Position numbers and translations under genes: made by a program. Of a DNA stretch of 64,000 bases, positions 3,760 through 58,911 are shown piece by piece. The notes under the pieces were generated by a model. It was not told where the DNA came from, did no database searches, and saw nothing but the letters and a program-made list of their open reading frames with translations. The number at the start of each line of letters is the position of its first letter. The first letter of the stretch is position 1. The stretch comes from Minutocellus sp. GHC0000111 (lineage: Eukaryota): contig OZ361259.1 in NCBI GenBank assembly GCA_977018835.1, forward strand, positions 186,001 to 250,000. The letters are read 5' to 3'.

Positions 3760-5879
3760 ACAATAATTTTGCGCCCGAGAGGAGGAGACAGATAGCATTG
3801 GGATGAGTTTATGCAACAATCAACCCGACAAAGGGACTTTTTGGTCTGGGAGATAAATGGGTGAGTTAAGAAGGACGTGATGTGTTTGTTTGGGTGCACT
3901 GTTTACTTTTTTGCTCAATCGCGATGCTGTTTGTAAAAGTTGGATTATGCAATTCATTTGTTATTGTGTAGCAGTAGTGTAATTTCATTTTCTAATTTTA
4001 TGCATGCCCTGCTCCTATCTCTACATCCTCATCTCCATCGGTGGCCATCATGATCATTTGTTGGCGCTTGTCATCAGTTTCTGCTTTAACAGCTTCGGTC
4101 CTTGTCCTTTTCCTTGTTCTTGCCACCCGAGAGTTTCGCTCCCGCCTCTCCTCGACCTTTGGATTGGATGCCCTCTCCTCAGCCTTGAACTGCGCCGTCT
4201 GTTGGGCCTCATATCCCTTGACGCCCTGAGTCCGACGATCTTCCTTAACGCCCTCTTGGTGGGCTCGCTCTACAAACGATTCGTCGAGCCAATAGATGCC
4301 GCCCCATCCATTCTTCACTAGCCAAATGTGTTGGTCCAAGATGTGATCTTCGAGTAAGTGCCACTTGGGCGTTATGCTAATGCCGATTGCCCGTGCTTGC
4401 TTGAGGGCACTTGCAATCAATGCTTCAAGCTCTCTCACAGCCTTCTTTGCCCCTCATCATCCCATTTCATGTGCCATTTCAGAAACCTGGAATGTGTTGC
4501 GTCAAGAGTGTGGAGCAAATTAGAGCAAGCTTTGCAGAGCTCTTTGATGTCGTCATCCGTCATGCCATCTTCCTCGCGATTGTGCTCTAGGAGAGTTCCT
4601 TTGGTGGAGGTGTTGTGGTGGATGAACTCTATTGTCCTTGGTTTCTTCTTGTTGTTGCCATCAGAAATATTAATAGATAAAGCTCTCCAGCATTCTGCCA
4701 GCACTGCCCTTATTTTACCTGAGTCGGCCGCCTCAATGCCGGCCTTTTTCAGGAAATGGAAGTGAGGGGCATCGTCATCCTCGGCATCATCGACAGCTCC
4801 CATCTCTGGCTCGCCATCACCGTGCTTCTGACGATTCTTCTCAAAGCACTGCTGCATGTGTGCTTCATGTGTAGCGTCCTCTCTTGCAATGTCAGCTTCG
4901 TCCTCATAACAGGGCACATAGTCCTCGTCTTCGTCGTCATCGTCCTCACTGATCTCGCCGGCCTCCGTCGTGGTCAGGGTGCCCACCGTCCCAACATCGT
5001 CGTCATTGTCCCACCCATCGTCCTGGCCATTACACCCACCAAGGAATTTCTGGGCCTCGAGCAACATCTGCCTGTTGATTTCGTAGTCCATCGCCGCATG
5101 TCCCACCGATATATGTGGTGCGACCGACTTGAGGAATGCATTGCATGCCTTCGTCAAATTGAGCCGCGGCGGCGGTGTTTCGAGGCGAAATTGTTGCTCG
5201 ACCGTGACCATGTCGAAAGCCATCCATCCATCATCATGGAGAGCGTCGGCTGCACGAGGATTGATAGAACCGAGGCGAACAAACATGCTCTTTTTGTATG
5301 GGGTTCGCTGAACGTCGTCGGCAAGGCAGTGTCTTGATACCATTTCATCCCATCCATTCTGGTTGTCTGTCCTCACAAAAAACACATCGCAGTCTTCGTG
5401 TTTCTTCTTCTTCAAACCCAAGATGCCCGCAGTGCACATGACGGCGCCGTACATGATGGGACTGCATCCCAACACATTCATCAAGGAGTCGTTGTTGCCG
5501 ATGAAATTGTAGTAATGAAGTTCCTTTCTGCGAAGACGGACGAGTAGTTCAGCCAGGGCGTCCTGCACCGCAACTAAGTTCTGTCTGCGGTGTTGACCGC
5601 GGGATTGCGGCCGTTATTTTTTTTGCTCATGGAGAATTATGGATCGAGACCAACGGGAATATCACCAGGATGTCGGGAGTACCTGGTTGGTCTCGTGCCG
5701 TAATTCTCCCACACCAGCGCGAGATATCGCCTTCGTTCTGCACGTAGCGGCGGCAATTTGAATTTTTGCCGCCATGGTGGCTCGCGTTGGGCGCGCCGGT
5801 CGGTTGCTTCGCGCGCCGGCCGGCCACCGAAAGTGCGACCAAAAGTATGCGAGTCATCCGGCTGGCAGATGGTGCTGTG
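3760..5879 (-). mobile_element. Chapaev/Transib-like DNA transposon body with frameshifted, probably internally deleted transposase (ORFs 4435-5568 and 3998-4438)
   Basis: Transposase C-terminal motif ITPKWHLLEDH...GGIYWLDESFVERAHQ. CAC terminus at 5879 and 4-bp TSD AAAT at 5880-5883. Confidence 0.7.
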
Positions 5880-6722
5880 AAATGGGAAGAGGCCGTGATG
5901 CTGTTGCGCAAAATGACAGAAGTGGGCATTCGGCCTGATGTGTACTCGTACAGCTCGGCAATCAGCGCATGTGAAAAGGGTGTTCAGACCGATATTGCCC
6001 TCTCGTTGTTGACCGAGATGAAGGCTGAAGGCATTCGGCCAAATGCAATATCCTACAACTCAGCCATAGCCGCCTGCGGAAAGGGAGGAGCTGATTACAC
6101 CGATACTGCTCTTTCGTTGTTGGCGGAGATGAAGGCTGGAGGCATTAGCCCAACTGTAATATCCTACAGCTCAGCCATAACTTCATGCGAGAAGGGTGGC
6201 GCCAAATATACCGACACCGCCCTATCATTGTTCAATGAGATGAAAGAGGCTGGAGTCAAACCTGATGCATTGACCTACAATGCCATCACAAAAGCTTGTT
6301 TCGACTCGAATCGATATCCCGAGTCCCTCAAGAAAGTAAGAGAGGCGATGGATCTTGGCATAAAGATGAAAAATCGCCCTTTGCGCATTGACGCTTCCAC
6401 TGAAAATGGACTTCCAACGTGGGATCTCCGCGTTCTACCGGAAGCAGTTGCATGCATGCTGCTCTCGGAAGCCCTACTTAATTTGGTCGAAAGCAACGGT
6501 GGACCACCTCCAAACTTTCAAGATATTACAGTCAATACTGGCAAACGAAAGTTTCTTCGAGAGAAGGAGCGTGCATTTCTAAGCGACATTGCTGGATTGG
6601 ACATCAATGCCGTCGAGGGGAACGAGGGCAGATTATTTCTCATCACGGCGGCATCGTTGGAGGAGTGGGTTGTTTCGGGGGCATTCAATAATTTTCGCTC
6701 TCTCTTCATTACCTCTAGCTAG
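5880..6722 (+). pseudogene. 3' part of the PPR-SMR gene (several PPR repeats plus Smr-like domain)
   Basis: Repeats GIRPDVYSYSSAISACEKG, GIRPNAISYNSAIAACGKG. C-terminal WDLRVLPEAVA...ITVNTGK...GNEGRL. No own ATG; begins at the TE junction. Confidence 0.8.
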
Positions 6723-9249: not shown

Positions 9250-11582
9250 TTAGTCTTCCGCGACGGCATCGGCGTCGATGAGAGGTTTGTTTTCGAGGCG
9301 CTGCGACTTTTGCAAGGCCATGCTCAGCGTCCGAGTACTTCGCATCTTCTTATTCATACCCATTGGGTCTACTTTCTCCTCTTGCTTCATCTGAGCGTCT
9401 TCACGCTCCGTGGGGACACCGCTCTTGTTTTCCTCTACTTCCTCCTCAGCCTTTGTCTGCGCTCGCCCTTCGGTGCCCCACTTCAGTCCGGAACCAAACA
9501 TCATCTGTCCACCTGCCGCGAGGCCACTGAACAAACATAGAACATCGTTGCTGCTCCGACTCCTATAATCGCATCCCATACCGTTAAACAGACCTTCTTC
9601 CATGTCGGCCAAGCCAGGATTCCTTTGATGTCGAGTTCCTTGACGAGCAGCCAATGCATACAAAAAATTGACACATTGATAATCATGAATGTCGTCATGA
9701 TTGCAGTGACGAAGACTGTAGCAAGGGTTTGGAAGTAAGGGGTCTGCAGATAGAATGCCCAGCTCAAACCATAGAGAGCAAAGAAGAGGGGCTGGACGAG
9801 ATTGAATGACGAAAAAATGAACAGCCGCCAAAGGATTGGGAGCTTATCGAGAAGAGGGACACTCCATCCAGGTGACCGAGAGCAACCGATGTATCGAGCG
9901 CTCCCGAATGAGAACTCATAGGCATTGCCGTACATCCACCTCTTGATCTGAACAAAACGAGCAACGAAGCCTTGAACAAACTTGTCGCTCGTCACGTTGT
10001 ATACCGATATCGGAAGTGGAATGGGTTCCAGTCTAGCAAGACCCTTGGAAAAATGATGACTTTTGAAAAGGTTGTGCGACTCGTCAGCCACAACAAAGTT
10101 GTCTCCACCATCAATAAGATCAAAGAGCTTCCACGACATGGAATATGTATTGACTGGTACCCTGGGTTTGCATCCAACAAGACCAAGATCGAGCCCGGAC
10201 ATGTTGGCCAGTTCGTTAAAGGCGAAGATGACACTGACAGCCCGATTAATGAAGTCAACCTCGTCTAGGTTTTCATAAAAGGCCACTGGACACTGCCAGA
10301 AACGAAGATGTTTGAGAGATCCCTCCTTTTCCTCAAATTTCTTGGAAAGAGTGGCAAGAAATCGAGGGTGACTCAACGCATCGGCATCCATAAGAGTAAC
10401 GACAGCATTCTCCGGGTCAAAGACGAATCCAGGACTAGCGAGAGTTTTATCAATCAAGTCTGGGTGAGCAAAGTAGGCCTCTGAATTGCTGGCATAGTTG
10501 ATATCAGATGAAGGCGGCGGGGCTTGTTCTTGCTTGGGAGCATCACCGGCACTGTTTGCGGATGATCCATTTTCATCTGTGCCGGAAATATCATTCTTGT
10601 CACCGGTCATCGCAAACTTTTGCAGGGCAGCATAGCTCCACTTCATATTGCTACTTTTTCCGGGTTGTTCTCCATTCAGGCGAGGATGGCAAGTCACGAT
10701 GACATCTCGAAACATGGGGAGGAATTCCTCACGCAGAGACTTGGCTTTTTCCATATATCCCTCCTCTCCTTGCTCCATACCGAGGACGATGGAAACATTC
10801 TCTTCCACGTTGATTGACTGTTGATTGACAAGGCGAAGAATTGTATTCTTCATCATGGTAACATCTTCGCAATAATTCGGTAGGACGACCAGGTGCTGCA
10901 CTTTGTTGGAATGCTCGATAGGCTCATCACCCTTGGCGAGCTCCTTCTTCATGGATCGGAATCCATTGATGCCGTTGATCGCCAGGCAGATATTGGAAGC
11001 AAGCCAAAAACACATAAAGGCGGTAGATACAAACATATACGTCACCTGGAATTCAGAGATCTCAACATTGCCATTGAGAGAAATAACAATGGCCGTCGAC
11101 ACGATGAACCAAACGATAATGACGAGAGATGTCGTGAAGGGAATCCACTTGAAGCAGGCCATTGCGAAGGAAGACACGCGCTGATCGGGCTTATCGGCGC
11201 GCTTCACGCTGAGGCGTCGCTGCATCTCTTCCTCAGATACCATCCGGCCCTTCCTGTGCCGAAGAAGGACCAGCATAATGCCCATGAGGAGACTGAAACT
11301 GAAGATCGAACCACTCACGGTTCCGCCGATTTTACTTAGGCACCGATCGTCGCAGTAACAAGGGAAATCGGACACAAATTCCTGAGCATACCCATCTCGG
11401 CATAGGCGCATCTGCTCTTCCTTATCGACTGCACATATGTTGACCTCTGCATAGCGGCAGACAACCTCAGCTTCGGCGGGGGTGCAGTGTTCGTCGAGGA
11501 TGGGGTCCAGAGCCGTGCAGTTGAACGACCCGCTCTGCGTTTCCATGCCATCACTGGCGAAAACTTCGAGAGCCTCGTCCAT
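9250..11582 (-). CDS. Membrane GT2 processive glycosyltransferase with Cys-rich N-terminus; frameshift near 9533 (pseudogene or sequencing error); true start may lie upstream
   Basis: LPNYCED, PGKSSN, TLMDAD (DxD), ADESH and QIKRW (QxxRW) motifs plus TM helices. The C-terminal tail SGLAAGGQMMFG continues in another frame to 9250. Confidence 0.75.
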
Positions 11583-11973
11583 GTTGCACGCACAGACAAA
11601 TCTGGGATAGAAAAGCGCGTCTCAACCGCGACGTGGCGCCGACAATCCTATTCCTCGGTCCATCATTCTTCAGGCAGCAGCGCGCATCGAACACCCTCGC
11701 GAGAGTACCTCGAGTCAATAGCAAAGGTACCACATCGAGCATCCTGGCAGTACTGATCGCCGCGCATTATTGTTCGGTTGTAGCGAAGACGGTAGCTGAA
11801 GGACCCTCGCAGCAGTATATACTTATCGTCGGCTATCTTCTGACAAACACATAGAGCCTCCTTGAAGTACTTATCGCCGCGCACACACTGAAGGCAACAT
11901 GGACGAGGCTCTCGAAGTTTTCGCCAGTGATGGCATGGAAACGCAGAGCAGGTCGTTCAACTGCACGGCTCTG
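11508..11973. repeat. 80-bp inverted repeat (11508-11587 / 11894-11973, one mismatch) duplicating the GT2 5' coding segment
   Basis: GCAACATGGACGAGGCTCTCGAAGTTTTCGCCAGTGATGGC...CTGCACGGCTCTG is present on both strands. Confidence 0.9.
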
Positions 11974-23480: not shown

Positions 23481-23954
23481 TTATCCAAAACAGCTGCATG
23501 CAAAGCATGAAAATCGCGACGTTGCTGGCGTCGTTGGCCGAGTGCTTCCGCCGGCGCTCTCGTGTGGTCGGGCGCGACTTCTAGACTTGGACCGGCCTCT
23601 TTCGTCCATTGCCTTATTGATATTTCCATCGCAATGTGGCGCCAAAGCCAGGACGCCTCTCCGAGTCACGCTCCTTGACCGACTTCGACTTCTGCTTCTA
23701 CTTCTTGATAGAGCTCTCCCTATTCTCTTTGGCGACAATACGTCCATCAACGATCGTTTCTTTTTATCACTGTCTGGCGCGTCGTCTGAAACATCTTTCC
23801 TCGTCCTGCTCCTACCTCTCGGTCTTACGCCTTTGACTGTCCCTTCTCTTGGCGTTCGCGGTGACTTTGCTACGTTGTCGCATTGTTCGGAACCATGCTC
23901 TTTCCTCGGCCTTGTTGCTTTCTTTCTCTGTGGCATGACACGGGCGATGCACAA
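23481..23954 (-). CDS. Small basic RS-rich hypothetical protein
   Basis: ORF with SRSRSR runs and a Cys-containing C-terminus; start uncertain. Confidence 0.35.
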   Translation of the reverse strand: MCIARVMPQRKKATRPRKEHGSEQCDNVAKSPRTPREGTVKGVRPRGRSRTRKDVSDDAPDSDKKKRSLMDVLSPKRIGRALSRSRSRSRSRSRSVTRRGVLALAPHCDGNINKAMDERGRSKSRSRARPHESAGGSTRPTTPATSRFSCFACSCFG

Positions 23955-24879
23955 CAGTCAGAGATGCTGGGAGAGTTCAGGAAGAAATGACCAGCGTTTA
24001 TTTTTCCATTCACCGCGGCGACATCAAATTTGATTGACCGCGTGCGGACATGCGGACATCCAACTTGGAACTTGGATCAAAACTAGAATGGACTGCTAGT
24101 AGGTAGGACTTCGCTAGGCCTACTTCCGAACTGAACCTTAGGCAATTCAAGTGTGTCGGAGCTCAACGAACGGCCGACGAACGCCACAGCGACTGTTTGA
24201 TCTGTGGAAAGAAGCGAAGAGGATGCTTTTATTGTGCTAAGAATCTGTCGGGAAGATGGAGCGACACTTTTTCGTCCTGCTTTGATTTTGAGCATGGAGT
24301 TTTCAGTGCAAATTTTCGGCGACAGTCGGTCGTTTGACGGTTGACGTAAAGACGACACAATGGGATTTCAGACTGTTTCAGATCCAATGCTGACTGATGA
24401 AAGTGTGACACTAGCAGCATGGAGAGGAGAGAGACGGCGCAGTTGCAAAACGCATCAAACAACAAACCAAGGGGGTGTTGGTTGTTTTTGGGGGGTGGGG
24501 GTGTGCACGATTCGTGGCGGTGTGTGAAATGCCTCGACCATGCGTGCCAGAGAGACAGCAAGCTGCCCGATTCCGACTGGTGGAAAAAATTATATTAACA
24601 GAATTTCCCAAATTGGGAAAAATATCATGTTAATGATATTAGAACAGTTACTACACAAGATCAAAGCCAATAGGCGAAGAGATGATGCTGCAGTAACGAA
24701 TGCGAGGGGTGATTTTTGGGGCTTTTGGACCGCGCAAAAATTTGCGCCAGGTCAAAAATGCATCATCAAAATAATTATAAGAGGGATTTAGAGCGGGGGA
24801 ACTTTTCCCATGCTCCCACATTCTGCGCTCAGCTCCAACTTCAGTTTATGTCGAACAACGTTGACGGAGGGTGACGGCA

Positions 24880-29511: not shown

Positions 29512-31490
29512 CTACCGCACACTTCGCCGACCGCTCTGCCGCATCCACATGCCAACAATCTCGAGTGGATCCTCATCGATGCGGGAATGTCCGTCCAAGA
29601 ATACATCAGTAATTTGAGCACATCCCCACATGTGCAACTTGGAGAGCTGTCGGTCGCATTTATCCACCAGATATCCCAGGCCCTTGTCGCTGATTTTTGC
29701 GCAAAAGCTGACGTTGAGCTCTTCGAGGGAAGAAGAGCTCGTGGCCACCAAATGTTCCATGCTCTTATCGGTGACAGAAGACCCACTGAGGTCGACATAT
29801 ACAAGTCCTCCAAGTGTCGACAATCCAGCCCTAACGATCTTGCTGGCTGCTGTCGATTTGATGCCCTCGGCATGCTTGGAGGACGATGCAAACGCTGCCA
29901 GGTGAAGCACGTCGTCACTGACGGCTCCCTCGTCACAAGAAGACAAATCGAGCTTGCGAAGCTGTGGAGGTTGCGGTAGACCCGGGATATCGTACGTAAA
30001 GAAGGCCTCGAGACCTGCCGGCGTCAAGTTCTTGAGATTCCCAAGGCTCAACGATCGTAGCTTGCCATTCTGATTGCACTTGCGGATGGCCGGGAGACAA
30101 TCGTCGGTCAGCTCCACATTGTGGCTAAGATCGATATGCTCCAGTTCCCCGCCGGTGACTGCCCCAAGCAATGCTGACACGACCTCGTCGTCAACACCTT
30201 CAATCTGTCGCAGTGTCAAACTCTTGAGATTGCGAAGAGCATCCGACGAGGAGGCAATAGTGAGCAAACCCTCCTTGGAAAGCGGCACATCCTCCAAGGA
30301 CAATTCCAACAAACAACCGTTGCTACCCTTGGAGGAAAAGTGATGAGAAATAGCATTGCAAAAGGAAGGCCCGAGTAGATTGCACGCCTTGAATTCAATA
30401 GAAGACAGAGTCGATGCCGTGGCCGCCACCAGAGATGCGGCATCGTCATCCTTCAGCAGATACGCGCCACCGATGCTAATGGCAAACAGATCGTTCTTAG
30501 GAGCAGTAACGATGGCATTGACAGCCTTGGGACCAAAACATCGTCCTGCATGGTTCAACATGAGTGCCCTAAGACCGGCGGGCAGCAGTGCCTCCATGGT
30601 GTCGACCATGGCATCCTGCGTGACGCTGGTGCAATCCACCACGTCCAATGCTTCCACGCCTGCTTCCGCCAGCACATCGAACGCCGCCCCATTCATCTTG
30701 CCGCTGGCGACCAAATACTCGCAGAGTGACCGCCGCACATCGACACCGACATCTCCCAACGCATCGACGGCCTCGAAGTTGTCCACAATCAGATCGATGC
30801 ACATCTTGTACAGACTTGGGATACGACCGGAATTGCCGCTGGCCTCGCGCTGACGGGCCAGCTGCCTCCGTCGCTTGACGTAGTAGTTGGCACCGGCATC
30901 AGCGGTGGCTGCGGCGCCCTGCCACATCATCGAGGGGTTGGCCTTGCGCTTCTTCTCCATCTCCACCTCGTGAATGACGTCGTCCAGGGGATGGAATTCG
31001 CCAAACTCCCGAACTTGTCCGTCGGGTCCCATTTCGGCATTCTGCTGTTCCTCCTCGCGCTTCCGCCGGGCCTCCTCCCGGGCGGCAATGCATTGGCGCG
31101 CGACGCTGAACGGACCGCACCAGGCATCCTCGGCGATGCCATCGATCTTGCCGTCGGATTTGCCGGTGGAAGTGGATCCCTTGACGAACCGGCCCATGGG
31201 GACCGACGCGACGGCGCTCTTGCTCTTGGTGGCATGGCCGAGCTTGGTCGAGCGGAGGGGCTGCGAGGGACGGGCCAGACGAGATGCCTCCCGCTGGGCT
31301 ACCGCGCGGTTCCGAAGACGGACCGAGGAGGGGAGGCGGCTGCCGCCAGCATTGGCGTCGTCGTTGCTGTTCGTTCCAGTGTCTGCTGCGAGGACGATTG
31401 GCTCTTGAGTTGGAGGTTTGCTTTTTGACGTAAGAAAAGCGAACGAAGGCGGGGAGGAGGTGGATTCAGATGTGCTGTCCTCTGTTTTAC
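29512..31490 (-). CDS. RAD7: RAD7-like LRR nucleotide-excision-repair protein, 5' end apparently replaced by copia sequence
   Basis: WCGPFSVA, IPSLYKMCIDLIVDNFEAVDALGDV, multiple Cys-containing LRRs. No ATG before the TE junction; first in-frame ATG at 31197. Confidence 0.7.
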
Positions 31491-33326
31491 ACTGATTAAC
31501 ACCCACCGTCCCTCCCGCTCAGTTACGACGCGAGCTACCACCGCAAGGATTGCACTTGGTGGCGTTATCAACGTGGTTGGGCCCTTTGCAAGTGCATTCA
31601 AAGCTGGGGTGGTTGGACGAATAGCCGCACGTGTGGCAACAATGGCCTCTGGGGAGGATCGACTGCAGTTCCCGCTTCTCCTGGCGGTTGAGGTTAGGAC
31701 CTTGGCCTGGGAAGTGGCCGGCGCCATTCTGCTGGCCACCGCTGTGGCAGCCTCCACTGCCACCAGCATGGTTGCGTCCCTCACGCAGAACGCAGTTCTC
31801 GGCCTTGAGTGAAGCTGTTTCTTGGCGAAGTTTGGCAATGGTGTCATCCTTCTTGTTGCTCTTTTTGGCGAGGTTCGCCATCATGGCTTGGTTGGTCTTG
31901 AGGGCTTCGGTGGCATCAGCCAAAAGGAGATTGGCTCGAGAAAGAAATGGATCCTCCGAGGCCAATGAGGCCAAATTCGCGCCATGACATCCTGCCGCTT
32001 CGGTGGTGGTGTTGGCCATCTTCTTGTCACACCAATCGCGGAAGTCCGACTGCATGTTGGTTGGCCCACGTGCGTTCGGCCTCCGGTCTGTCGCCCCAGT
32101 CCTCCCATGCCTTCTTTGCCAATGAGAACCTGTGCACGGAGCGGCAGAACTTGGAGACCTTTTGCTTGTTGGTGAAGGGTTCGCCGGCCGTTTCAAACGC
32201 CTTGAAGACTTTGTTGAACATGGCGATGTGGGTGTCGATGGGTCCCCCGTCGTGCTGCTTCTCGAGCTGCTTCTCTAGTTCCTCCTTCTGAGTCTCGTTG
32301 AATTTCAAGCAGCGATCGGCAATGCTGTCGATGATTTGGCGGATGGTGACTGGCTGGAAACCGAGCACGTCATCTTCGAGATGATTGATGTAGACGACGT
32401 CGATCGAGTTGAGGAGGAGATTCTTGAGCGCCGTGTTGACTTGCTCGCACAAGTTGTGGTGGCCCTTTTCGATGTGTGACATCCCCGGATTGCACGATCG
32501 CGTTGGTCTAGATTGGCCACAGCGGGAACGGTGGGGCTGGGGCCAGGATTTGCCGGAGGCACATGTGGTCGGACGTTGCTTTTGGTGGTGTGTTCGGCAT
32601 CGCTGACGACGAGGCCCAAATGGCCGAGGTCATGTGTGGTCATTGCACCCTCCTGCTGGAATGCTGGCCGCCGCTTGTTGAAGCTCCTTGAGCGCTTTGG
32701 CAACACGCTCGCGTTGGTTGGGGAGGTTGTCCTGGGTCATTCATGCGTGTGATTAACTTGGTGGGGAGAATCGGCGCTGCGCCGAGAGGTTGGCCAAAAA
32801 CTGCGTCGGGATTCATGCTGGTGTTTCAGTCAGCGAAGACAGGCAGCACGGCGGTGTTGCTGCGAGACGCGTGATCGACAGAAGGCTCGATCGATCCAGA
32901 GAAGTGTGATCGATTGGTTGGATGGGTCGATCTGGTCAGGACTTTCGGGGAAGGGATTGGATCGTCGTTCCAACATTGTCGAAAGAAACGGTCGTTTTGG
33001 CCGATTGAGTGAAGATGTGTCGGTTTTTCTTGCGCGTGTGACGAGTGAGAACCAACCCAAGACAAACCGGTGAGAGGAGGTGCGAACCGAAATGGGGCGA
33101 GCACGGGTGGAAAAGATGTATCACGTAGGTCTGCTAAGAGGTCCTAAAGCTAAGCTAGATAGACATAGCTAGTAGAGGTTAACAGGACCTACGTAGATGA
33201 AAAATGGGCCATCGGAGATGTCGTTGGCCCATGGATCAACGGTCAGGAGAGGGCACTGAGTCAGTGGTCTGATCACCGCACGCACCGTGCGTATGTATAC
33301 GTACGTACGTATCCCACGGTATCAAC
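31490..33326 (-). mobile_element. Truncated Ty1/copia (CoDi-like) LTR retrotransposon: 5' LTR plus degenerate gag (about 31519-32816); pol and 3' LTR missing
   Basis: LTR start TGTTGATA at 33326 (minus strand). Gag motifs GHLGLVVSDAE..., P.NPGP.P, WEDW..RP...RTWAN, and CHTCGY...H.S.EC....P.H...AT..NP.GGS. Confidence 0.8.
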
Positions 33327-33797
33327 ATAAATACATATAGTGAATAAATAATAATATCTAGCTAGCTGCTTCTGGCAAATATAAGTCATGAACTGTACAT
33401 GCATCTGTGCTATGCCGGCATCATGTTGCTACTGTACCAGTACATGTAGCTTGCAAATTCAAGATATGATGCACAGTGCAACTTGTATTGTATAGATAGA
33501 TCTACCAGTACATAATCATTGTGCATGAGCCAACACCGGCAGTTACCATTCTGACACTTGCCGAGAATGCCAGTTTCCAAACTGGTATTCATTTTTGTTC
33601 CAGTTCGCGAACTCGTCTGGTTCCCAAATTCGGATTGGCGTGTTTATCTCAGTTTCCATTCTGGTAGTATCAGTGCGCAAACTGAGATCCTAGTTTGGGA
33701 ACTGGTGCCCAGTGCGCAAACTGGGATAAATGAATCTCAGTTCGCAAACTGGGATCCCAGTTCGCGAACTGGGACAGTGCGCATTTTGGGACTAACA
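33327..33797 (-). mobile_element. Partial copy of the 750-bp MITE, cut by the copia LTR
   Basis: Near-identical revcomp of about 36491-36958; intact terminus GGGACTAACA|TATA at 33797. Confidence 0.9.
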
Positions 33798-33936
33798 TAT
33801 ATATTACAAATCAGCAAAGATTGTCATTAGTAGGCGAGTTAATATACATACACATAGGAGAGTGCATGTAGCAGTTTGATGCTATGCATGTGCTCTTACA
33901 CACATGAAGCTATGCATGTACTCTTTTGCACATGAA

Positions 33937-35157: not shown

Positions 35158-36421
35158 ATGAGCGGTGACAGCTTTGATGAGCGCACAGCTCTTACCATAG
35201 TTTGGATCATATTATTGGTCATATTTCTGTGAGTTGCGTCGCATGCAGGTACAGCCATGATAATTTCTCGCACTCTTTACCAAAATAAGTTGTTCTCACT
35301 CGCTCACTCAGAATTCTTCTTCTTCGTTATTCTGCTCATATTCCAATATTGCCTTATTCTGTCCTTCAGGATCTTTCCATGCTGTTCCTCTGCAAGGAAA
35401 CGGAAGATATGGCGCAAGCGCATCAAGGAGAGGCGGTGGCACGTGTATGTGGCCCAAGAGGAACCGGAGGATTGGTTCCTCGCAGCTTTGGAGAGGTATC
35501 GGGCCGCTCAGCAGAGAGAGGATGAGGCACAACGACAGGGGGGAACGGCCAACAGTTTGACGCAGGTAGCCGCGGACATTGTTTGGAAGGAAAAGGAAGA
35601 GGCGGAATTGCGCAGAGCTCTCACGGATGATCTCCTGCGCGACTTTACCAAGGTAAGGACGTTTACAACATTATGGTGGATCTTGGATCGGTCTTGGATA
35701 TCTTCTGGGTTCTCATTTTAAGAAGATGCCGATATGTCGATATTGACATTATTGCTTTGCCACACCTGCCTCCCCACTTTTCTTGCAGGAACTACAAAAG
35801 AAGGACTTTGTTGAGGTGCCTACTTCACCTCGATCTCCGCAAGACGATGTTGAGAAGGATGTGGCAGCGGAAGAAGAACCAACACCAACAACCGCCGATG
35901 GTGATACTGAAGATGGTATTTCTGACGTCGAGCTTGGCATACCAGTCGTCGTACCAGACGAGAATGGTATGCCCCTGAACGAGGATGAGATTGATATCTT
36001 TCAGAGCGATAGCATGATGGAAAATGCCTACAGAGTACGATTGCCTGCCCCAGGCAGTGGGACTTTACAACCCAACGAGGAAGCCGAAGGCGAAGGGGGA
36101 AGCGGTAGTGGCGGTGGCGGTGAGACGACTCGAGAGGTACCCAATGGCTGCGCCGTCTGCATGGACCCATTCGGCATCGGCGATCGCATCTGCTGGTCAT
36201 CCAACGCTGGATGTCCGCATGCATTTCACGAGAAGTGCTTGATCAATTGGCTCCTTGTTTTGGGACGTCGACGACGGATGCAGACGCTACAAACACCTTC
36301 GGATGATGTCGATCTTACCGATTACGACATGCTTTGTCCCTGCTGCCGGCAAGAGTTTGTGGTGAAAACTGGTGTTGGCAGCAACGATGATGAAGAGCGG
36401 CCGGATAGCCAGGGAGCTTAG
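35158..36421 (+). CDS. Single-TM RING-H2 E3 ligase-like protein; exons 35158-35228, 35370-35652, 35789-36421
   Basis: CAVC...CPHAFHEKCLINWL...CPCCR; GT-AG introns keep the frame; N-terminal TM segment. Confidence 0.8.
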
Positions 36422-36490
36422 TGACGATTCATTGTCGCAACGACCCTACTATTGCATGTAGAAGATGATGTAAACAATAGACTGTGTATA

Positions 36491-37240
36491 TGTTAGTCCC
36501 AAAATGCGCACTGTCCCAGTTCGCGAACTGGGATCCCAGTTTGCGAACTGAGATTCATTTATCCCAGTTCGCGCACTGGGCCCCAGTTCCCAAACTAGCA
36601 TCTCAGTTTGCGCACTGATACTACCAGAATGGAAACTGAGATAAACACGCCAATCCGAATTTGGGAACCAGACGAGTTCGCGAACTGGAACAAAAATGAA
36701 TACCAGTTTGGAAACTGGCATTCTCGGCAAGTGTCAGAATGGTAACTGCCGGTGTTGGCTCATGCACAATGATTATGTACTGGTAGATCTATCTACAATA
36801 CAAGTTGCACTGTGCATCATATCTTGAATTTGCAAGCTACATGTACTGGTACAGTAGCAACATGATGCCGGCATAGCACAGATGCATGTACAGTTCATGA
36901 CTTATATTTGCCAGAAGCAGCTAGCTAGATATTATTTTTTATTCACTATATGTATTTAGTATCAGCTAATGCCAATTTATTGAGTATCAGCTCCGGCACT
37001 AATGTCGTCTGGACGTCTGGACCAGGTTTGGGCTGTGTTGCTTCACTATGAAAAAATGAAGCGAGGAGAAGCAAAGGCGATATCATCCATGCTAAATATT
37101 CATTATTTCTCGATTGATCCCAGTTTGCAAACTGAGATTGTGCCTATGATCCCAGTTTCCAAACTGGGATAAATAAATCCTAGTTCGCAAACTGGGATCC
37201 CAGTTCGCGAACTGGGACAGTGCGCATTTTGGGACTAACA
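36491..37240. mobile_element. Full-length non-autonomous DNA transposon (MITE), ~60-bp TIR TGTTAGTCCCAAAATGCGCACTGTCCCAG..., TA/TATA target
   Basis: Matching TIRs, TATA on both flanks, many subterminal CAGTTYGCGAACTG palindromes, second copy at 33327-33797. Confidence 0.9.
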
Positions 37241-37391
37241 TATATATAATTTGTCCTAATATATTCTCCCATTTGTCGCGTAGCCGTGATCATTTGGCTT
37301 GAATGACACTGAAGTGCCTCGCACTAATTTCGACAGTGGAAAGTGGAAAATAGATCTACTCACTCGTAGATATTTTCTACTAATAGCTCTA

Positions 37392-43630: not shown

Positions 43631-45406
43631 TCACCGCTCGTTCGATTCGTCCTCGTCGTCTCCTTCTATTCCTTCTCTCTCATCGGAAGCAGCAAGATCC
43701 TGCTCCTTCCGCGGGACCAAGGGAATCAACGGAAGAAAGCAGAGAACCCCAACACTTTGGATGATGGCAGTTATGAGGAAGGTGAACGTATAGTCATATT
43801 TATCAGAAAGCCAACCCCCTATGGCTGCGCTGCCACACCAGCCAAACGATACGACACTGTCCAAAGACTTCCATCGAGCTCGCTCGTTCTTTGGAACAAA
43901 ATCCATCAATATTGACTCATTGAGAGGGTATGTACAATTCATGAGTGCTGTTCGTAGAACATATATTGGGACCAAGGCCAGTGGATGAGAGTCAAGATAA
44001 CGCTTACCAAACACCATGGCATAAAGACAGGACACGCCCATGGAGTTCAACAGGATCATGGTCTGGACCCTACCAAATTCAGTTGAAGATATCTTCTCTC
44101 CAACGCCGGAAAATGCCACCATGGAAAGAGGGACGAGAACGTAGATTAGCTGCACCTGAGAGGGAGAAAGCTTGACCTCTTCTTTGAAGAATAAAGGGAA
44201 GAATTTGATCGTCATCCCGGATCCGAGAGCAAAGACAAGTGATTGGAAGCACAGTATGATTGGGATCAGCTTTTGTTTCCTCTTCGTGCTCAGTTCATCC
44301 GCGGTATTGCCTATTTCGTCTCAAGTATGAGCATCCGACGCGGATTCCTCTTGAGCAGTACTCTTTTCGGTATTTTCAATATCCCTTAAATCACTGCTGC
44401 CGGCCATTCTAGTCTCGTCATCATCATTATTCGTTTCTTCGTTTGCCCTTGATTCATCCTCCTCGTCCAAGCTCTTCTCGTCGTCAAAAAAGAACATTAT
44501 GATGGCAGCAACTCCCTCCAGACCAAGTCCAACGTACAAAACAGCACGGAGATGACTAAGATCCCACTCATCTCCAAGTGTCTGGAAGAGAATGATTGAT
44601 ACCAATGGCCCGAGACAGCTGCTAATCATGTAGGCTGCGAACAAATACATATAATATACAGACCTGGACCCAGCCGGAGTGGAGTCTGCATACAAAGCTT
44701 GCGACGGGCCGTTGATGACGCCACCGCCTATGCCCCAAAGTGCCATGACAGCCGCAAACAAGATGAAGGACAGTTCCCTCTTTCCGTCGTCGTGGTTGAG
44801 CGCCTCCTCGTCTGTACCGATCCACTCCAACAACGCAGCGTGGGCGACGGCCGTAACAATGATGAGCGCACCTCCTGCCCCAATCACCTTGTCTCGTCCG
44901 CATTTGTCTGCCAGATACCCCACGGGCAATGCCGAGAATAGCGAAGCCAGACCCGACACTGCCTCAACGTCGCCCACCGGGCCGTTCTTTTCCCTGCCCA
45001 GACGCTTGAGATAGGCGGCAATGACTGTTCCTGACCAAAGAGAATCGGCGAGGCCATACAATCCAGAAAGGAGTAGTGACAGAAAAACATTGTGGTTCAT
45101 TCTGGGGCGTGATGCTGGCCTTGTACGGCATAGAATCCATCGAGGAAATAACATGTCCTTACTGCACGCAGTACTGTTGGTATTATTGTCGTCGTCATCG
45201 GCAGCAGAGGCCGGAAGAAGCGGCTCGTGCAGTTGTTGCCCATCATCGTCGTTCGATGCCATGATGGTTCTACTATCAAGTCCAGGCGAAGAGATGAGAA
45301 GCTCTCGCAATTGATCAGTGATGGTGGCCTCCCGATTACATGTATTCCTTCTTCTTTTAGCGTTGCTGGCGACAGAAGCAGCAGCCCCGTCGTCGGTGTC
45401 CGCCAT
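43631..45406 (-). pseudogene. MFS transporter with in-frame TGA at 44321-44323 in the central loop
   Basis: GYLADKCGR motif A, GPSQALYADS, GSGMTIKFFPLFF, SILMDFVPKNERARW; both halves are in the same frame. Confidence 0.75.
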
Positions 45407-46682
45407 GGTTGCGAAAGAGTAAGAACATCCCGCCCTGCCTCGGAGCGAGAGCCTCGGAAGGGTGCCTACCTAATCACATTGACTAGTTGATTTTTTTAGT
45501 TTCTTTAGACTATTTGAATTCTTAATTACGTCACAGAGAAATAAAAGAGAAAGACAGAGACGCTGTGTCAGAAAGTGACACAAGAGACATGTGCCCCGCC
45601 TGAAAGACATCCTGCAGCAGGCCTCATCCGCCATTAATCTTCATGCAATTGCACCACTCGTTTCTTCTTGGCGGGTGGCTCGTCCTTATCGTCGTCGGAA
45701 GAGGACGACTCGTCCGAGGATGACTCGTCGAACGAAGCACCACGGCATGCGCTCAGCGTCGGCCAGGGCCTCGTCTTCAGACCACCACTTGATGCCCTCG
45801 GAGGAGGAGGCGACTAGCAGCACCATCGACGTGAACCACCAGCACACTCTGGCCTTTGCATTACGCACTTTTGCGATCTTGCCCACCGTTACCGGCTGGC
45901 TCTGGCTCATCACCACTGCCGGCAAACTGCCTGCTCCTTAAAAGGAGTGACCATTGGACACACCACTGTTGTTTGGATGTCGTCATCAACCATCACCATT
46001 GTGTTGGACATCATCACTGCTTGGACATCACCTCACTTTCTGTTGGAGAATTTCATTTAATTATTTTATGAATGCAACCTTTTCCCGGTCTTTTGAGTTC
46101 AGGATTTCATCGTTCGATGATTTCCTGCGAGGGTGTGTTGATCCCGGGGATCTGGTCCCGGATGTCCGTTGCATTTTGCTTGTGATCGGCGGCGCGCCCA
46201 GAGCACAGATCACTCTCGCTGCTAGAATGGCTGGCTCACAATCTGTGTGTAGTTCCTCCTCAGTTGCGCATGCACTGCGAGAACCTGCTGGTCCACCATC
46301 TTAGCATCGGCGTCTTCTCTTCTTCTGTTTGCCGACGGAAGGAGACACATGGGATCCGGCGACACTAGGAGGGGAGGGGAGTTGGCGAGAGCTTTCTTTG
46401 ACGATTTCGGCTTCGGCTTCCGACTGCGACTGACTTTGCTTCTTCTCGGGGAGGAGCCGCTTGCCTGGGCGTGGCACAGGGCAATGTCTCGCACAAGCCT
46501 TTCCGACTCGGCCTCGGCGTCGGCGTCGGCGTCCAGATCGGTGGTGGTTTGACGACGACAATCAATCGCGACAAGCGGCATCGGCAGCAGCGAGACAAGC
46601 TGCGGGTGTTGAACATTCGCTCATTTTTGTTCGATGATTGGCGGCATGCGTGCCACACGGCGAGGCTTGGTGCAAGCTAGCA

Positions 46683-46900
46683 GGGTCGTCTGACCTGTCA
46701 GATTGGCCGGCCAATCTCCAAAAAGAAACCAAATGACTTTTGATGTGGAGGCCCCACAGAAAAATCAAAAACACATTGCTAACTTGCTTTTTTGTGAGGA
46801 ATGTCGCTGTGGTCTTGTTTTTGATTAAAATTAATTGTTTTAAAAATTGTTCTGCATGGTCGTCTTAATTGGCCGGCCAATCTGACGAGTCAGACGACCC
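46683..46900. mobile_element. 218-bp MITE with ~33-bp TIR GGGTCGTCTGAC..GTCAGATTGGCCGGCCAAT
   Basis: TIRs at about 46683-46715 and 46868-46900; flanks are CA (left) and TA (right). Confidence 0.85.
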
Positions 46901-47393
46901 TAGTGTGCACATGCTAGCACAGGCCGGTGCAGACGGCAAGGTGGAGCGGTGGGATGGGGGCCGTCATGAGGGCAAGAAACGGACGGCCAGAAAGACTGCT
47001 GACAAAAAGGAGGTAGCGCGGGTTTTCCGCGTTTCTGAGTTTATTTAGCAAATTTTGCTTCAGAAACCAAAGCAAAGGTCAGAAAGTCGGCATGCTTTTA
47101 CACAAATGAATGTTTTTATGTTTCAACGTCATTAGTCAGTTGTGTCAGAATTTTGGGGAGTTCGTTACATTTTACTGCACTGTAAGTAGCCCCGTCATTA
47201 GGAACATTCCCTCGGAAGAATGTGAGTGACTGCGAGCAAGCATTGCTGGTCGCATCTCACAACATGCAAACTCCCGCGTTTTCGTTTTCGTCGTGCAAAT
47301 GATGATGAGACCATCCAACCAACCGCTACAAGGAGACTACTAGCTGCGTAGCTAGTGTTATGGCGGGGCAACAGCCACCGAAAAGAAATGTAA

Positions 47394-48224
47394 ATGAAGC
47401 GATTCCTGGTATCAAAGACATCTGATGCACCGGCAGCTGCTGCAGCGGCGGCGGCGAAACGAGCCAAATTGTCTCCTCGCGCTGGTCCTGGTTCTCCACC
47501 AGCTGCTCCACCGCAACTGAAACTGCCTCGACCACGAAAGATTAGTCACCACGGCGATTTGGATGTGCTGTACTATTCCCGATTCCTAAACGATGGGTCA
47601 ATAACGCCGGCACTTGCAAATTTACCGCTCGAGGAGTCTGTCATTGTCATGTTTGGCAAAACCATCAAAGAGCCCAGACGGACGGGCTTCTTCTCGTCGA
47701 ATGACAGGCCATTGAAATACTCCGGATCGATTCGGCATCCCCTGCCTCTTACAGAGGAATTGGATTCGATTCGACGAAAGATTGAGGAATTACCCGATGT
47801 GCAAAAGGCGCTGGTCAAGGAGCGGGGGGGGAGCAATAATGTACCAAACAAATCGAATTATAACAACAACAGTGGTGAGATGGATAAAAAGAATGATACA
47901 TCATCGTCATCGCGATATAGCTTTACAGGATGCTTCGCAAACATGTATGAAGACGGAACACATTACATGGGGTTCCATTCAGATGATGAAGCAGAGAATG
48001 GACCATCGAAGGACAATCGAGTCATCGCGTCGGTGACATTTGGCGAAGCGAGAAGATTCGTCTTCAAGAGAAAGAGTGATGGTACCAAGGTGGAGCTTAC
48101 GTTGGAGCCTGGGTCGCTCCTACTGATGAAGGGCCGGACGCAGAGTATATGGAAACATGCGGTGCCGAAAACGACAAAGCCAATGGGGAAAAGACTCAAT
48201 CTCACATATCGAATTATTCTGTAA
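47394..48224 (+). CDS. AlkB-family 2OG-Fe(II) dioxygenase (ALKBH2/3-like)
   Basis: MFGKTIKEPR, N.Y.DG...MGFHSDDE, IASVTFG..R.F, WKHAVPK, RLNLTYR. Confidence 0.9.
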   Translation: MKRFLVSKTSDAPAAAAAAAAKRAKLSPRAGPGSPPAAPPQLKLPRPRKISHHGDLDVLYYSRFLNDGSITPALANLPLEESVIVMFGKTIKEPRRTGFFSSNDRPLKYSGSIRHPLPLTEELDSIRRKIEELPDVQKALVKERGGSNNVPNKSNYNNNSGEMDKKNDTSSSSRYSFTGCFANMYEDGTHYMGFHSDDEAENGPSKDNRVIASVTFGEARRFVFKRKSDGTKVELTLEPGSLLLMKGRTQSIWKHAVPKTTKPMGKRLNLTYRIIL

Positions 48225-54916: not shown

Positions 54917-56254
54917 ATGTCGTCCACGCAGACGCAAAGAGATGCGCTCCTCCAGCAGATTGCTCGGGAGAGGAGAGAAGTGCGCATCCTGGAGTCCGAA
55001 CGGGCCCTTCTCCTGAGCCGGTTCAACCATCGTCAATCGCAAGGAACCGACAAAGGGGCGAGAGATACCTGCTCCGATACCGCCAACACAGCAAATGCTC
55101 GGAATAGCAGTAAGAAGATGCCACGCCCTCGTTATCATGGCGGAGACTTTTCCGGGGATCAAATGGCCAGGCTGACACATGGTGCTGCTGACCAAGACGG
55201 CGGTAGGGATCTGCTCGACGTGCTCGATGCACTGCAGTGCCGAACGACGCTGGAAACCATGAACGCGAACAATATTGGGGAAGCACCATCTTCTACGTCA
55301 GGTATCTTTGTACCAAGGAATGCTGCCACTGGTGGCGGCGGCGTTCTGAGAGAAGTGGACGCAGATTCCTACCGGATGCATCCTATTCTTGGCGGCATTA
55401 CCTTTACAAAGGTGGAGGGACCGCTTCCGCCAGGCGAGCAGAAGCGGTCACAAGAAAAAGACATCGACAATGGAGATCCCAAGAAGAGTACACGGTCATT
55501 GTACATCCTTTCGGGACATACCAATGCCAATATATCTGCAATTCCTGGGTCGGAACACAAATCGGAATGTTGCTGCATTGGTTTCGAGGTCCGAGCGGAG
55601 ATATCCTTTGCAGATCAATCTGATGGTGCTGATGACGAAAGGGCGACGGTGTCATCGGTACACACCAAGTTCTTCCCGCATCCGTCAAATGAGATGGCTC
55701 AAGACGATGATTCCAAATTTGCCCTGCCCATTCCCTTTCCAAAGGAGGAATTGGAAGAACTTGCCGATTTGGTATCCAAGACGCGAAGTCTGACGCAACT
55801 GTTTCGGGAATTGGTGGCCTTTCACGAATTTCATTTAGAACGATCGGCATCGATGCAACGGCTTGTCAAGGAATTTGGCACGGATGGTTGTCTATCGATC
55901 ACATGCGCCGATATTATGGAAATTAGAAGCAGCTATGGCAATATGAAGGCCGGCAGGGATTGCTTGAGTGGGTTCAAAACAGCTGGTGCTGGTGCTGGTG
56001 TTGGTGTTGATGCTGGTGTTGGGCCGCTTCTGCGCTTGAGACTATCGTGGTCCCGCTCCTTTTCGGAGCTTGGCCGGGAGGATGATCTCTGCGTTGAAGA
56101 TTGCACCGTCGGGGGCAACGGTGAGGCGGATAATGCTGTCGATGCACTGGTGGATACCATCCTGGATCCCGACGGCATCGATTCTCTCGTCCATATTGCA
56201 GGTGGCATCGAGGAGGCTATCCGTGCGATCACCCGGGCCGTCATGGGGACGTGA
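54917..56254 (+). CDS. Hypothetical protein, candidate CENP-P/Ctf19-like kinetochore subunit
   Basis: 445-aa ORF with N-terminal coiled coil, then LGGITF, YILSG, FEVRAEI, ELADLVSKTRSLTQLFRELVAF...R...L...F and LRLSW segments resembling CENP-P as recalled. Confidence 0.5.
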   Translation: MSSTQTQRDALLQQIARERREVRILESERALLLSRFNHRQSQGTDKGARDTCSDTANTANARNSSKKMPRPRYHGGDFSGDQMARLTHGAADQDGGRDLLDVLDALQCRTTLETMNANNIGEAPSSTSGIFVPRNAATGGGGVLREVDADSYRMHPILGGITFTKVEGPLPPGEQKRSQEKDIDNGDPKKSTRSLYILSGHTNANISAIPGSEHKSECCCIGFEVRAEISFADQSDGADDERATVSSVHTKFFPHPSNEMAQDDDSKFALPIPFPKEELEELADLVSKTRSLTQLFRELVAFHEFHLERSASMQRLVKEFGTDGCLSITCADIMEIRSSYGNMKAGRDCLSGFKTAGAGAGVGVDAGVGPLLRLRLSWSRSFSELGREDDLCVEDCTVGGNGEADNAVDALVDTILDPDGIDSLVHIAGGIEEAIRAITRAVMGT

Positions 56255-56786
56255 CGCTTGAACCCTTGGCCAAACATCGGTCCCATACCAGTAAATACGC
56301 GTAAAGCTACGTAGCTAAGCTGCATGTTGGAGTTTCAAGATCAACATCTTCGCACTATAATAAAATCAAAAATCAATTATATCTACCAAAACATTGATCA
56401 TCGAAGAAAAAAGAAATCTAGAATATCCCCAACCTGCATTGGCAAGGAAGCCAAGCGGTGTGCGTAATGCGTAACAAATGTGCGGTATGCGGTGTTCGTG
56501 GCGAGAGAGGGGGGAGGTAGCTACGTAGGTGTGCGGTTTGACGTGTACGGTGGTGGGTAACGGTGGCGGCGGGAAAGGGGGGTCGGTGGTGGTGGATCCG
56601 GGAACACAGGAGTCCCTGGAGCCCACCCACAGCGGGGGTCCGGAGCCAAGAACCTCTCTTGGCTCCAGACGGCGCTGCCTCTAAAAATTTAATACCACTT
56701 CCGCTTTGCCTCCAGCCCCACACTAGCTAGACTTTGACACTTACTCCTCCCTCTCTCCTCCCTTCCCTCGCCCCCTTCTCCTCTCT

Positions 56787-58070
56787 TTAGGCCTCCTCAC
56801 ACCATTTGTTCTCCTCGCGGACCTGGGCCTCCTCCTCGGGGCTGAAGTCGTTGGCGATGTTGAAGGTGCGGCGGATCTCCTCGGGGGTCTTGCCCTTGAT
56901 CATGGAGGCGACGGTGGCGCAGGTCAGGTCGAGGAGGGGCTTGATGTCCATGTAGTTGGCGGCGAGGATGAGCTCGAAGAGGAGGACCTGCTCGACGTTG
57001 ACGAAGTCAGCGTACCACTTCTGGACGACCTCGGACATGACGGCGGACTTGAGGGGCTTCTCGATCTCGGTCATGGGCTCGGCCTTGTGGTGCTCGCAGA
57101 AGTCGATGACCTTCTTGAGGACGGAGGCCTTGACGTTGGGGAGGGGGATCTCGGCGACGGCGTCGTCGTCGTCCCCGTCCATCATGGTCTTGACGAGCTC
57201 GGACATCTTGGCGACCTCGGCGGAGACCTCGAAGGAGTCTCCCTCCTTGCTGACCTGTTATGTATTACGACGGGCCGCGGGGCGGGAGGAACCAGATGGC
57301 ATGGAAAATCGCACCGGCGATCGAGAGTTGGTTCGACGGGAGTGACGGGCCGGACCAGAACGGAACCGGACGATCGAAACCAAGAAGAGAAAGAGTACGT
57401 CAGTGTGAGATAGAGCGTGAGCCGGGGGACCATGAATGAACATACATAGATGATAGATACATCATAATGTGGTGTGGCCGAGAGCTTGCGGTCGTGCGGC
57501 GGGGGGACCCGAAAGGATACGGCACATCACCAACTCCAAATGCAACTACAACCAATCAAAATGAAAATAAAATTCATTGGCCGAGACCGCAAACCACCCG
57601 AATAATTGGTCCGGATCGGTCGGACCGGAGGGGAGAGGCCGGCGATGCAAAGGTTCCACGGCCTGCCGACCGACCGCCCGATCGCAAAAATCCGCCACAT
57701 TCATTTCTCAACAAATGCGGGGAATTTCCAAGGCACAAATCCAGACTTAATTATGAAGAAATGGGCCAACCGACCCGCAAACCGGCCGGACCGTCTCCCA
57801 TTTTCAACCCTTGGAAAGGATGGAAGCACCGCCGGGACCGGTCCGGTCCGAACAAGGCTGGGCAAAGCCGGCCGATTCCAAAGCTCCCTCCGGCCTCCGG
57901 CCTCCCGCCTCCGACTGCGATTCTGTTCCCGTGGATTGGGGGTCGCGGACTCGACTCTCCCTCCTCAAACTGGACGGGGAAACCCCACAGAAACAAATTG
58001 ATACGGCTGAACTAAAACTTACAAGGTTGACCTTGGTGGTGTCGGCGTCGGCGGCGGCGGCTTCGGACAT
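56787..58070 (-). CDS. SKP1: SKP1; exons 58023-58070 and 56787-57254
   Basis: IPLPNVK...[11 protein letters not shown]...[37 protein letters not shown]. Confidence 0.97.
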
Positions 58071-58911
58071 GGTTGTTGGTTGATAACGAGCGGGAAGGCT
58101 TGGAACAGCAAAAGGCAAAAAATCTGCAAAAATGAAGTGAGCCTGAAAACAGCAAAGAGTTGCAAAAGCCGAAAAGCCGAAGCGGCGCTGGAGCCCGGTG
58201 ACGGCCAGACGACAATTTGGGCAATTGGACTCGCTCGACCTGGCATCATGCTTGGCGGGCGCGGGAGGCGAGGAACTTTCCCCAACGCACCTGCCGCCCG
58301 CTCCGATGGCATCATATTCCTCCGCCACGGACCGTGGAAGGCCGTGGTATACTCAATACCGAACTCAATTTCGGAGTCGAGTGAACGGAAGAGTGATCCA
58401 AATCTGTTTCGCTTCCACGGCTTTGTTGTTGTGCAACGCCGTCGTGCCTTGGGGGACGCACGCATGCATGCATCGCATGGGAGCAAAGCACATACATTTC
58501 ATTCCTTCATCCATCCGAGTCAAAGGTGGCACCTCTTTTGCACATGCATACATCTGCGTGCCGCACCCAATACACGAACAAAAGCACGCGTCCTGTGAGG
58601 TCGGAAAGATCCCCTTGAAGCTACGTACTTCGCACAATAACGAAAAAGGTCGGTCGGCGGAGCGGAGTGGTCGTCACTGACTGAAGCGAGGCAAAGCAAA
58701 CATTAACGGTGTGTGAGATAGCACCGAACTGATCACCGCTCGCTCGGCGCGTGGCAGCAGCGTGGAAGCACAAAAAGGAAGAGGGTGCAATTTACCTGCC
58801 GCCCAAACAAAAATAAATATCGCAGCAATCGAACGGCGTGGACACCAATATAATAGCAGGTGCGAATATTAGTACCCGAGGAAAGATACCGTTTCGCATA
58901 TCAATAGATAA

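Follow-up and report, generated by a model that had tools for sequence, protein, structure and literature searches.

In ascomycete fungi, RIP is triggered by duplication and converts C to T at CpA and CpG, making TpA dinucleotides and stop codons. RIP indices appear in passages of PMC7884421, which deals with ordinary transitions. The closest described system to the locus presented here is that of the chlorarachniophyte Bigelowiella natans, in which integrated NCLDV and virophage DNA undergoes de novo TpA>TpG/CpA hypermutation, elevated ~1000-fold according to the main text of Mettrop et al. (bioRxiv 10.64898/2026.01.13.699255). The same text describes the TpA-poor genes of B. natans as enriched in reverse-transcriptase and DDE domains, and proposes adenine deamination as the mechanism with ADAT2 as a candidate, the enzyme being unproven. 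The initial annotation of our locus, made without a literature search, knew of no described mechanism of this kind; the process has this precedent in print. Polymerase eta is another source of mutations at A, producing A>C/G changes at WA motifs after mismatch repair in the passages of PMC4686820 that deal with this activity. No report of a TA-to-TG/CA process in diatoms or other algae beyond B. natans was found in the open-licence literature.

The DNA under study lies in a 64-kb window (the whole stretch that was analyzed), the relevant features of which are collected in Table 1. The core, which spans the leader and most of the gag gene of a retrotransposon, contains exactly four TpA in 1,422 nt, yielding an observed/expected ratio (O/E) of 0.06 compared to 0.59 for the whole window. 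This recount agrees with the four sites (CTAG twice, GTAG and TTAA in ~1420 bp) listed in the initial annotation, which map to positions 32276 (CTAG), 32391 (GTAG), 32509 (CTAG) and 32754 (TTAA). The survivors are mostly of the CTAG/TTAA type, three of the four being pyrimidine-TA-purine and none purine-TA-pyrimidine. Sliding windows of 1,421 nt placed elsewhere in the 64 kb, outside of 31300-33200, never contained fewer than 18 TpA, and the Poisson probability of the core count was 1.8e-12 at the whole-window rate and 5.6e-8 at an O/E of 0.41, the lowest host-gene value. TpG (O/E 1.30) and CpA (1.20) were both raised, and CpG (0.96) was not depleted. The non-coding leader alone harbored no TA in 302 nt where 9.3 were expected (P = 9e-5), bearing out the earlier argument that codon bias is insufficient to account for the depletion. 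The edge of the depleted region is sharp, with no TA across 32756-33118 and 20 in the next 209 nt.

Table 1. Coordinates of the retroelement copy, its neighbors and the second block with the survivor fingerprint in the 64-kb window.
Feature	Position	Strand	Evidence
TpA-depleted core (leader and most of gag)	31697..33118	.	TpA count
5' LTR, 196 nt, TG...CA ends	33132..33327	-	Loose ends of family contigs at 33132 and 33327
Predicted primer-site position behind the LTR	33120..33137	-	Predicted pairing with LTR 33179-33198
5' leader, no TA, six short insertions relative to family	32817..33118	-	Family contigs
gag, Cys or His in place of 14 of 16 ancestral Tyr, frame broken by insertions	31519..32816	-	Family comparison
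In-frame continuation past the gag stop, protease D-T-G at 31375-31383	31371..31518	-	Alignment to L001
Host leucine-rich-repeat (LRR) gene, FBXL-like	29512..31370	-	In-frame join to truncated protease
Partial MITE-like repeat, cut at the 5' end of the LTR, TA intact	33328..33804	.	Repeat comparison
Complete inverted MITE-like sister, 94-nt terminal inverted repeats	36487..37247	.	99% identity over 474 nt
Second block with survivor fingerprint	45342..47409	.	No purine-TA-pyrimidine in 2,067 nt

The stretch consists of leader and gag sequence from an LTR retrotransposon that has lost its 3' part and is likely copia-like and of diatom origin. Both "diatom" and "copia-like" are provisional assignments, since a Pfam search matched no family to gag and since its look-alikes in the Atlas, although commonest in Bacillariophyta, rest on few recorded members. 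In line with the diatom Ty1/copia (CoDi) elements, as presented in the relevant sections of PMC2806351, the LTR has TG...CA ends, a single stop codon follows gag, and the protease is succeeded by an integrase-like region in L001, a sister element recovered as the single related locus from metagenome contigs (one of 329 pattern matches). Unlike the CoDi elements described there, the present one has a primer site that looks self-complementary, and the copy is truncated, mutated and known without a reverse transcriptase. Only the 5' LTR is found in the window; the element breaks off at ~31371, and pol and the 3' LTR are missing. The pairing predicted between primer site and LTR had a z-score of -4.5, with none of 200 shuffles folding equally well, and no tRNA gene was found within the 64-kb window. 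The complementarity may reflect self-priming in place of a tRNA primer, a possibility suggested by the folding model; the literature documents such a mechanism for Tf1/Sushi and puts it forward for some copia elements of plants. L001 extends past the D-T-G motif into the integrase-like region, with Pfam matches below cut-off to DDE_3 (E 0.056) and SH3_retrovirus (E 8e-4), and its sequence stops short of a reverse transcriptase. The integrase-like region of L001 is followed, at ~3408-3542, by a Tudor-like domain (PF21743, E 9e-12) that is possibly a chromatin-targeting module. Related family DNA was absent from the 114 pattern matches in viral contigs and the 14 in prokaryote genomes, and the metagenome, viral and prokaryote DNA searched yielded no reverse-transcriptase sequence of the family.

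On its truncated side, the element is joined in frame to the LRR gene, which is FBXL-like and may resemble RAD7. The junction at 31371 was seen in contigs of two public runs, X1 and X2; the LRR gene may have lost its original 5' end, or may now be driven by the LTR promoter. The family is multi-copy: in runs X1, X2 and X5, the contig depth summed over the element was one to three orders of magnitude greater than that of the flank, a figure which is not a copy number. On the other side, the 5' end of the LTR abuts the interior of a MITE-like repeat (33328-33804) whose inverted sister continues with the very junction letters of the family contigs, and we therefore infer that the retroelement inserted into the MITE-like repeat. 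The two inverted MITE-like copies enclose 2.7 kb of DNA with a RING-finger ORF (35747-36421), and the resulting composite could look like one long-TIR element.

To define the changes at the DNA level, the window copy was compared to family contigs, and 40 of the 56 differences were tabulated; runs with small word shares were left out of this comparison. Sixteen of these 40 were family TA read as TG (9) or CA (7) in the window, one was a TA transversion, and none was a TG or CA turned into TA. After the exclusion of five rows that adjoin TA changes or gaps, the 18 clean non-TA rows consisted, by hand count, of eight A>G changes elsewhere, six CpG transitions, one other transition and three transversions. 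This dinucleotide table, which the initial annotation had called for, shows a clear excess of TA->TG/CA, and it upholds the earlier proposals that the change is opposite to RIP, affecting A 3' of T, and that it is strand-symmetric. In run X1, 11 of the 16 TA rows were polymorphic within the family (less than 95% of one letter) compared to none of the 18 non-TA rows (hand count). TA variation is therefore not confined to the protein set described below.

L001, the TpA O/E of which is 0.55-0.65, was also compared with the window. When 28 of its TA sites were aligned to the window, ten were found as CA, six as TG, six as TA and six as other dinucleotides, TA being the least conserved dinucleotide of all (0.21 compared to 0.35-0.73). 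Taking the L001 O/E of 0.55 as ancestral, ~36 TA would be expected in the core, which corresponds to a loss of ~89% against ~1% for other changes, and we estimate the historical TA excess at roughly 100-fold. None of the nine L001 TA sites in 31697-32119 was kept, compared to six of 19 in 31371-31696, with survivors in weak contexts; these numbers of sites (9 vs 19) are too small to call a fading of mutation towards the LRR gene.

Individual copies were then compared through 33 family proteins, ENA members from eight clusters at ~90% identity of which the largest contributed 15 of its 71 members; being automatic gene calls, these proteins are biased towards open frames. The ancestral state was taken from intact outgroup gags, which carry Tyr at 15 of the 16 ancestral Tyr columns; out-of-frame segments were masked, and two columns with Tyr in an outgroup and Phe in every copy were left out. 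Across the 16 columns (363 cells), Tyr was present in 163 cells, Cys in 119, His in 80 and Phe in one, such that 200 cells (55%) had changed, 199 of them to Cys or His. Eleven further TA-spanning columns, which were picked after seeing the data, had 99 of 258 cells changed (Thr>Ala, Asn>Asp, Met>Val, Ile>Met/Thr), and all remaining columns differed in 70 of 9,023 cells (0.8%). Both Cys and His were carried by 29 of the 33 copies. Consistent with what the main text of the B. natans study reports (bioRxiv 10.64898/2026.01.13.699255), A>G transitions were thus found almost only at TpA, and on both strands.

In the window copy, 14 of the 16 ancestral Tyr are changed, ten to Cys and four to His, leaving the two that the initial annotation had noticed. 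Among the peptides in which it had suspected a replaced Tyr, those of DAEH and NLCEQV, the Cys of KFCRSVH and the first Cys of GHCCHTCG were indeed Tyr replacements; the His of RPHVPP, of THIAM and of the GH in the last peptide, in contrast, is ancestral, that of RSVH results from an Arg>His CpG change, and the Met of THIAM reflects another TA change, Ile>Met. Two copies are near-unmutated, P0019 retaining nine of nine and P0021 nine of ten covered Tyr columns. His and Cys are therefore not a feature of the active element, contrary to the scenario in which all active members are equally TpA-poor and share these residues.

The pattern of changes was specific to nearly every copy. The four-gamete test was failed by 200 of 256 character pairs, which is incompatible with one tree, and a single pair among the 269 protein pairs sharing at least eight Tyr columns had identical Tyr patterns. 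Some changes may nevertheless be inherited, because columns 55 and 109 have Tyr in no copy. The load per copy, at its lowest 1 of 18 sites and at its highest 16 of 21, was overdispersed (P = 1.5e-11). It did not correlate with non-TA divergence (rho 0.15, P = 0.40; with 61 such changes, a comparison of low power), a result that fits bursts of mutation and, equally, one-shot editing during transposition. Cys and His loads were likewise uncorrelated (rho 0.10, 27 copies).

The family proteins further allowed the flanking preference of the process to be resolved by strand. A change to His requires A>G on the antisense strand, on which the affected A is followed by the complement of the base preceding the codon. 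Where that preceding base was a purine (target TAY), 69 of 176 cells had His, compared to 11 of 186 where it was a pyrimidine (target TAR; per-column P = 0.001). At purine-TA-pyrimidine columns, 0-43% of copies retained Tyr, compared to 37-92% at other columns, and codons with an AA step were barely changed (Lys 3/667, Asn 6/609, Phe 4/324).

A block at 45342-47409 bears the fingerprint expected of survivors, 26 of its 50 TA being of the resistant pyrimidine-TA-purine class. Within it, the flank rule recurred at 46100-47350, the TA class distribution of which differed from background with P = 3e-10, the block having been picked as the extreme of this same statistic. No gag- or pol-like frame was seen in the block by eye; a 34-nt inverted repeat (46682-46715 / 46868-46901) lies within it. 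Two non-genic stretches, 23738-24592 (854 nt) and 3413-4211 (798 nt), are also free of purine-TA-pyrimidine and are possibly lightly hit blocks. Elsewhere in the window, an 80-nt inverted duplication (99% identity; 11508-11587 / 11894-11973) derives from the start of the gene at 9501-11621, a PPR-repeat gene occupies 5748-6722, and a 61-nt repeat pair at 2784/3008 (region 2700-3100) may be a decayed PPR-like fragment.

Host genes and the adjacent MITE-like repeat were spared. TpA O/E values of 0.44-0.72 were obtained for 15 long ORFs located elsewhere in the 64 kb, and the part of the LRR gene at 29512-30820 (O/E 0.41) has kept ten purine-TA-pyrimidine sites; the restriction to mobile or foreign DNA, with host genes left alone, is again as in the main text of the B. 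natans report. The LTR of the window copy is nearly spared, keeping 18 TA including seven of the most sensitive purine-TA-pyrimidine class. Its one TA>TG change relative to the family is at 33289, where all of the X1 and X2 depth has the family A, and a 145-nt family record covering 33134-33278 has two other letters; this evidence pertains to the window copy, one site and one record rather than to the family at large. The partial MITE-like repeat had an O/E of 0.92, nearby intergenic and MITE DNA being near 0.9 in general. Over 474 nt, four substitutions and a single 2-nt indel separate its arm (33328-33801) from that of the inverted sister (36487-36958); none of these is a TA>TG/CA difference, and the 99%-identical pair thus provides an internal control. 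As this adjacent, multi-copy repeat is untouched, repetition alone is insufficient for targeting.

RIP, which resembles the process described here in its strand-symmetric, dinucleotide-specific transitions that kill transposon copies, was considered and ruled out. It runs in the opposite direction to the TpA loss and the TpG and CpA gains of the core, and the closely linked, near-identical inverted MITE-like pair is unmutated.

In addition to its TA changes, the window copy has at least 11 small insertions (2-5 nt), all located between 32056 and 33072. Twelve of 32 indel rows were tabulated and all consisted of extra letters in the window, representing 11 events. Those at 32713, 32633, 32473 and 32056 in gag are out of frame and that at 32649 is in frame; the leader insertions, relative to the family, are at 32887, 32914, 33006, 33034, 33050 and 33072. 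Seven of the 11 events are perfect tandem duplications, and ten correspond to 38 of the 39 gap letters in a single 1,048-nt contig from run X7; the insertions private to the window copy are provisional, since contigs drop rare variants. The four out-of-frame insertions leave the window copy without a long ORF. The earlier suggestion that victims keep long ORFs and are mis-annotated as genes hence holds for the many sister copies that are open and called as genes, but not for this one. Eleven one-residue insertions were found in sister proteins, nine of them in the first half (P = 0.016).

Tandemly repeated 4-nt words (squares) numbered 17 in the element compared to 6.0 expected. They were also raised in TA-normal stretches (16, 14 and 15 vs ~6), and their window-wide correlation with TA loss was weak (rho -0.13, P = 0.10); a coupling between duplication and TA change is therefore not claimed. 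An excess of 4-nt tandem words was seen at 4001-6000, 46001-48000 and 56001-60000 (14-16 per 2 kb vs ~6), and may reflect a general micro-duplication process. The insertion at 32633 fits a duplicated TA-bearing word of which one copy reads CA and the other TG, and that at 32713 cannot be a former TA because a TA there would give a stop. The short duplications probably represent a separate, second process in the same dead copy.

Altogether, the copies of this family have been altered, one by one, by a local, symmetric and flank-dependent A>G process at TA. All of the features tested match the TpA hypermutation of B. natans, pointing to the same kind of process. Activity is uneven between lines there, and the copy-to-copy unevenness of the loads here would be an analogue only of that variation. 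The two systems also differ. The host here is likely a diatom, a word absent from the main text of the B. natans report; single-copy viral inserts were followed de novo there, whereas a multi-copy LTR family is read historically here. The same main text holds no flank rule beyond TA, no LTR sparing and no short duplications, and its supplements may bear on the flank rule (bioRxiv 10.64898/2026.01.13.699255).

The A>G changes at TA were probably introduced into the inner part of the element by a host adenine deaminase, likely after insertion. An enzyme of the ADAT2/TadA fold would turn the A of TA into inosine in chromosomal DNA, and inosine would be read as G at replication, giving TG or CA depending on the strand. 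TadA-type enzymes prefer T-A-C, a preference that the TAY rule seen here would resemble and for which no supporting passage was found in the literature looked up. Chromatin or small RNAs would guide the deaminase to silenced, coding inner transposon DNA, where it would work in bursts, and gag would be inactivated without stop codons through the loss of most Tyr along with Ile>Met/Thr, Thr>Ala and Asn>Asp replacements. A bolder form of this reading, a two-stroke "adenine RIP" in diatoms, would have one targeted enzyme deaminate TA, with TAY preferred, throughout the inner domain of silenced retrotransposons, after which staggered nicks arising from the processing of opposed inosines would be refilled to give the 2-5-nt tandem duplications. 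Tyr and reading frame would then be lost together, LTRs and non-coding repeats would be spared, and the deaminase responsible would qualify as a naturally occurring adenine editor of double-strand DNA; we regard this version as doubtful.

Editing could instead have taken place during retrotransposition, a deaminase acting before integration on the element RNA to give TG and on minus-strand cDNA to give CA, in the way that ADAR and APOBEC3G edit viruses. This would account for the spared LTR and the spared MITE-like target repeat, for a load that varies between copies without tracking other divergence, and for the uncorrelated Cys and His loads. We nonetheless consider it unlikely, given that the second block displays the same fingerprint with no gag- or pol-like frame by eye, that one flank rule would be needed on both RNA and DNA, and that the same change arises in resident chromosomal DNA of B. 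natans according to its main text. Error-prone repair, in which a polymerase-eta-like enzyme recruited by mismatch or base-excision repair to methylated transposon DNA would put G opposite T and slip or refill staggered nicks to give the short duplications, is rather improbable. While the eight A>G changes outside of TA among the 18 non-TA rows and the 11 short insertions speak for it, as does the likeness to polymerase-eta (non-canonical AID) mutagenesis in A>G changes after T on both strands, the WA motif includes AA and many of the changes there are A>C (PMC4686820, in the passages concerned). Here, AA codons changed at ~1% or less against 55% for Tyr, the changes were almost all transitions, with transversions as rare as one Phe in 200 changed cells, and at a CpG O/E of 0.96, that is, with CpG not depleted, little T:G substrate would be available for repair.

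A modified adenine, methylated or oxidized at TA in silenced DNA and prone to deaminate or to mispair with C, would leave the same symmetric, domain-limited and flank-dependent A>G pattern, its writer setting the specificity. As eukaryotic 6mA is mostly found at ApT in active chromatin and not at TpA, this origin seems a poor prospect. It is very improbable that no targeted process was at work and that the pattern stems from codon bias of the element, descent from a single TA-poor master, a bias of the whole genome or errors in sequencing. The low TA content of the whole window and the two Tyr columns changed in all copies would be in keeping with such causes, but the leader is non-coding and devoid of TA, L001 and the nearby intergenic and MITE DNA have much higher O/E values, near-intact copies exist, columns with all three of Tyr, Cys and His break tree-like inheritance, and contigs from separate public runs show polymorphism at TA sites. 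The depletion is real, targeted and unusual, and has a precedent; neither the deaminase favored above nor the timing of its action is proven. The present analysis adds depth through family-wide counts, a strand-resolved flank rule, the AA test and the MITE control.

A single case of eukaryotic genome defense by A-to-G DNA editing is in print, that of a rhizarian alga, and no enzyme has been assigned to it. The presence of such a defense in a likely diatom would extend it to a second eukaryotic supergroup, one amenable to genetics. With its preference for TAY over TAR and its sparing of AA, the flank rule provides a biochemical fingerprint against which candidate enzymes may be compared, natural DNA adenine deaminases being rare and useful for base editing, and blocks free of purine-TA-pyrimidine offer a sharper index for genome scans than TpA alone. 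For the element family itself, mutated copies that keep open frames enter protein databases as genes, as did the 33 analyzed above, and dating transposons by their divergence would return ages that are far too high.
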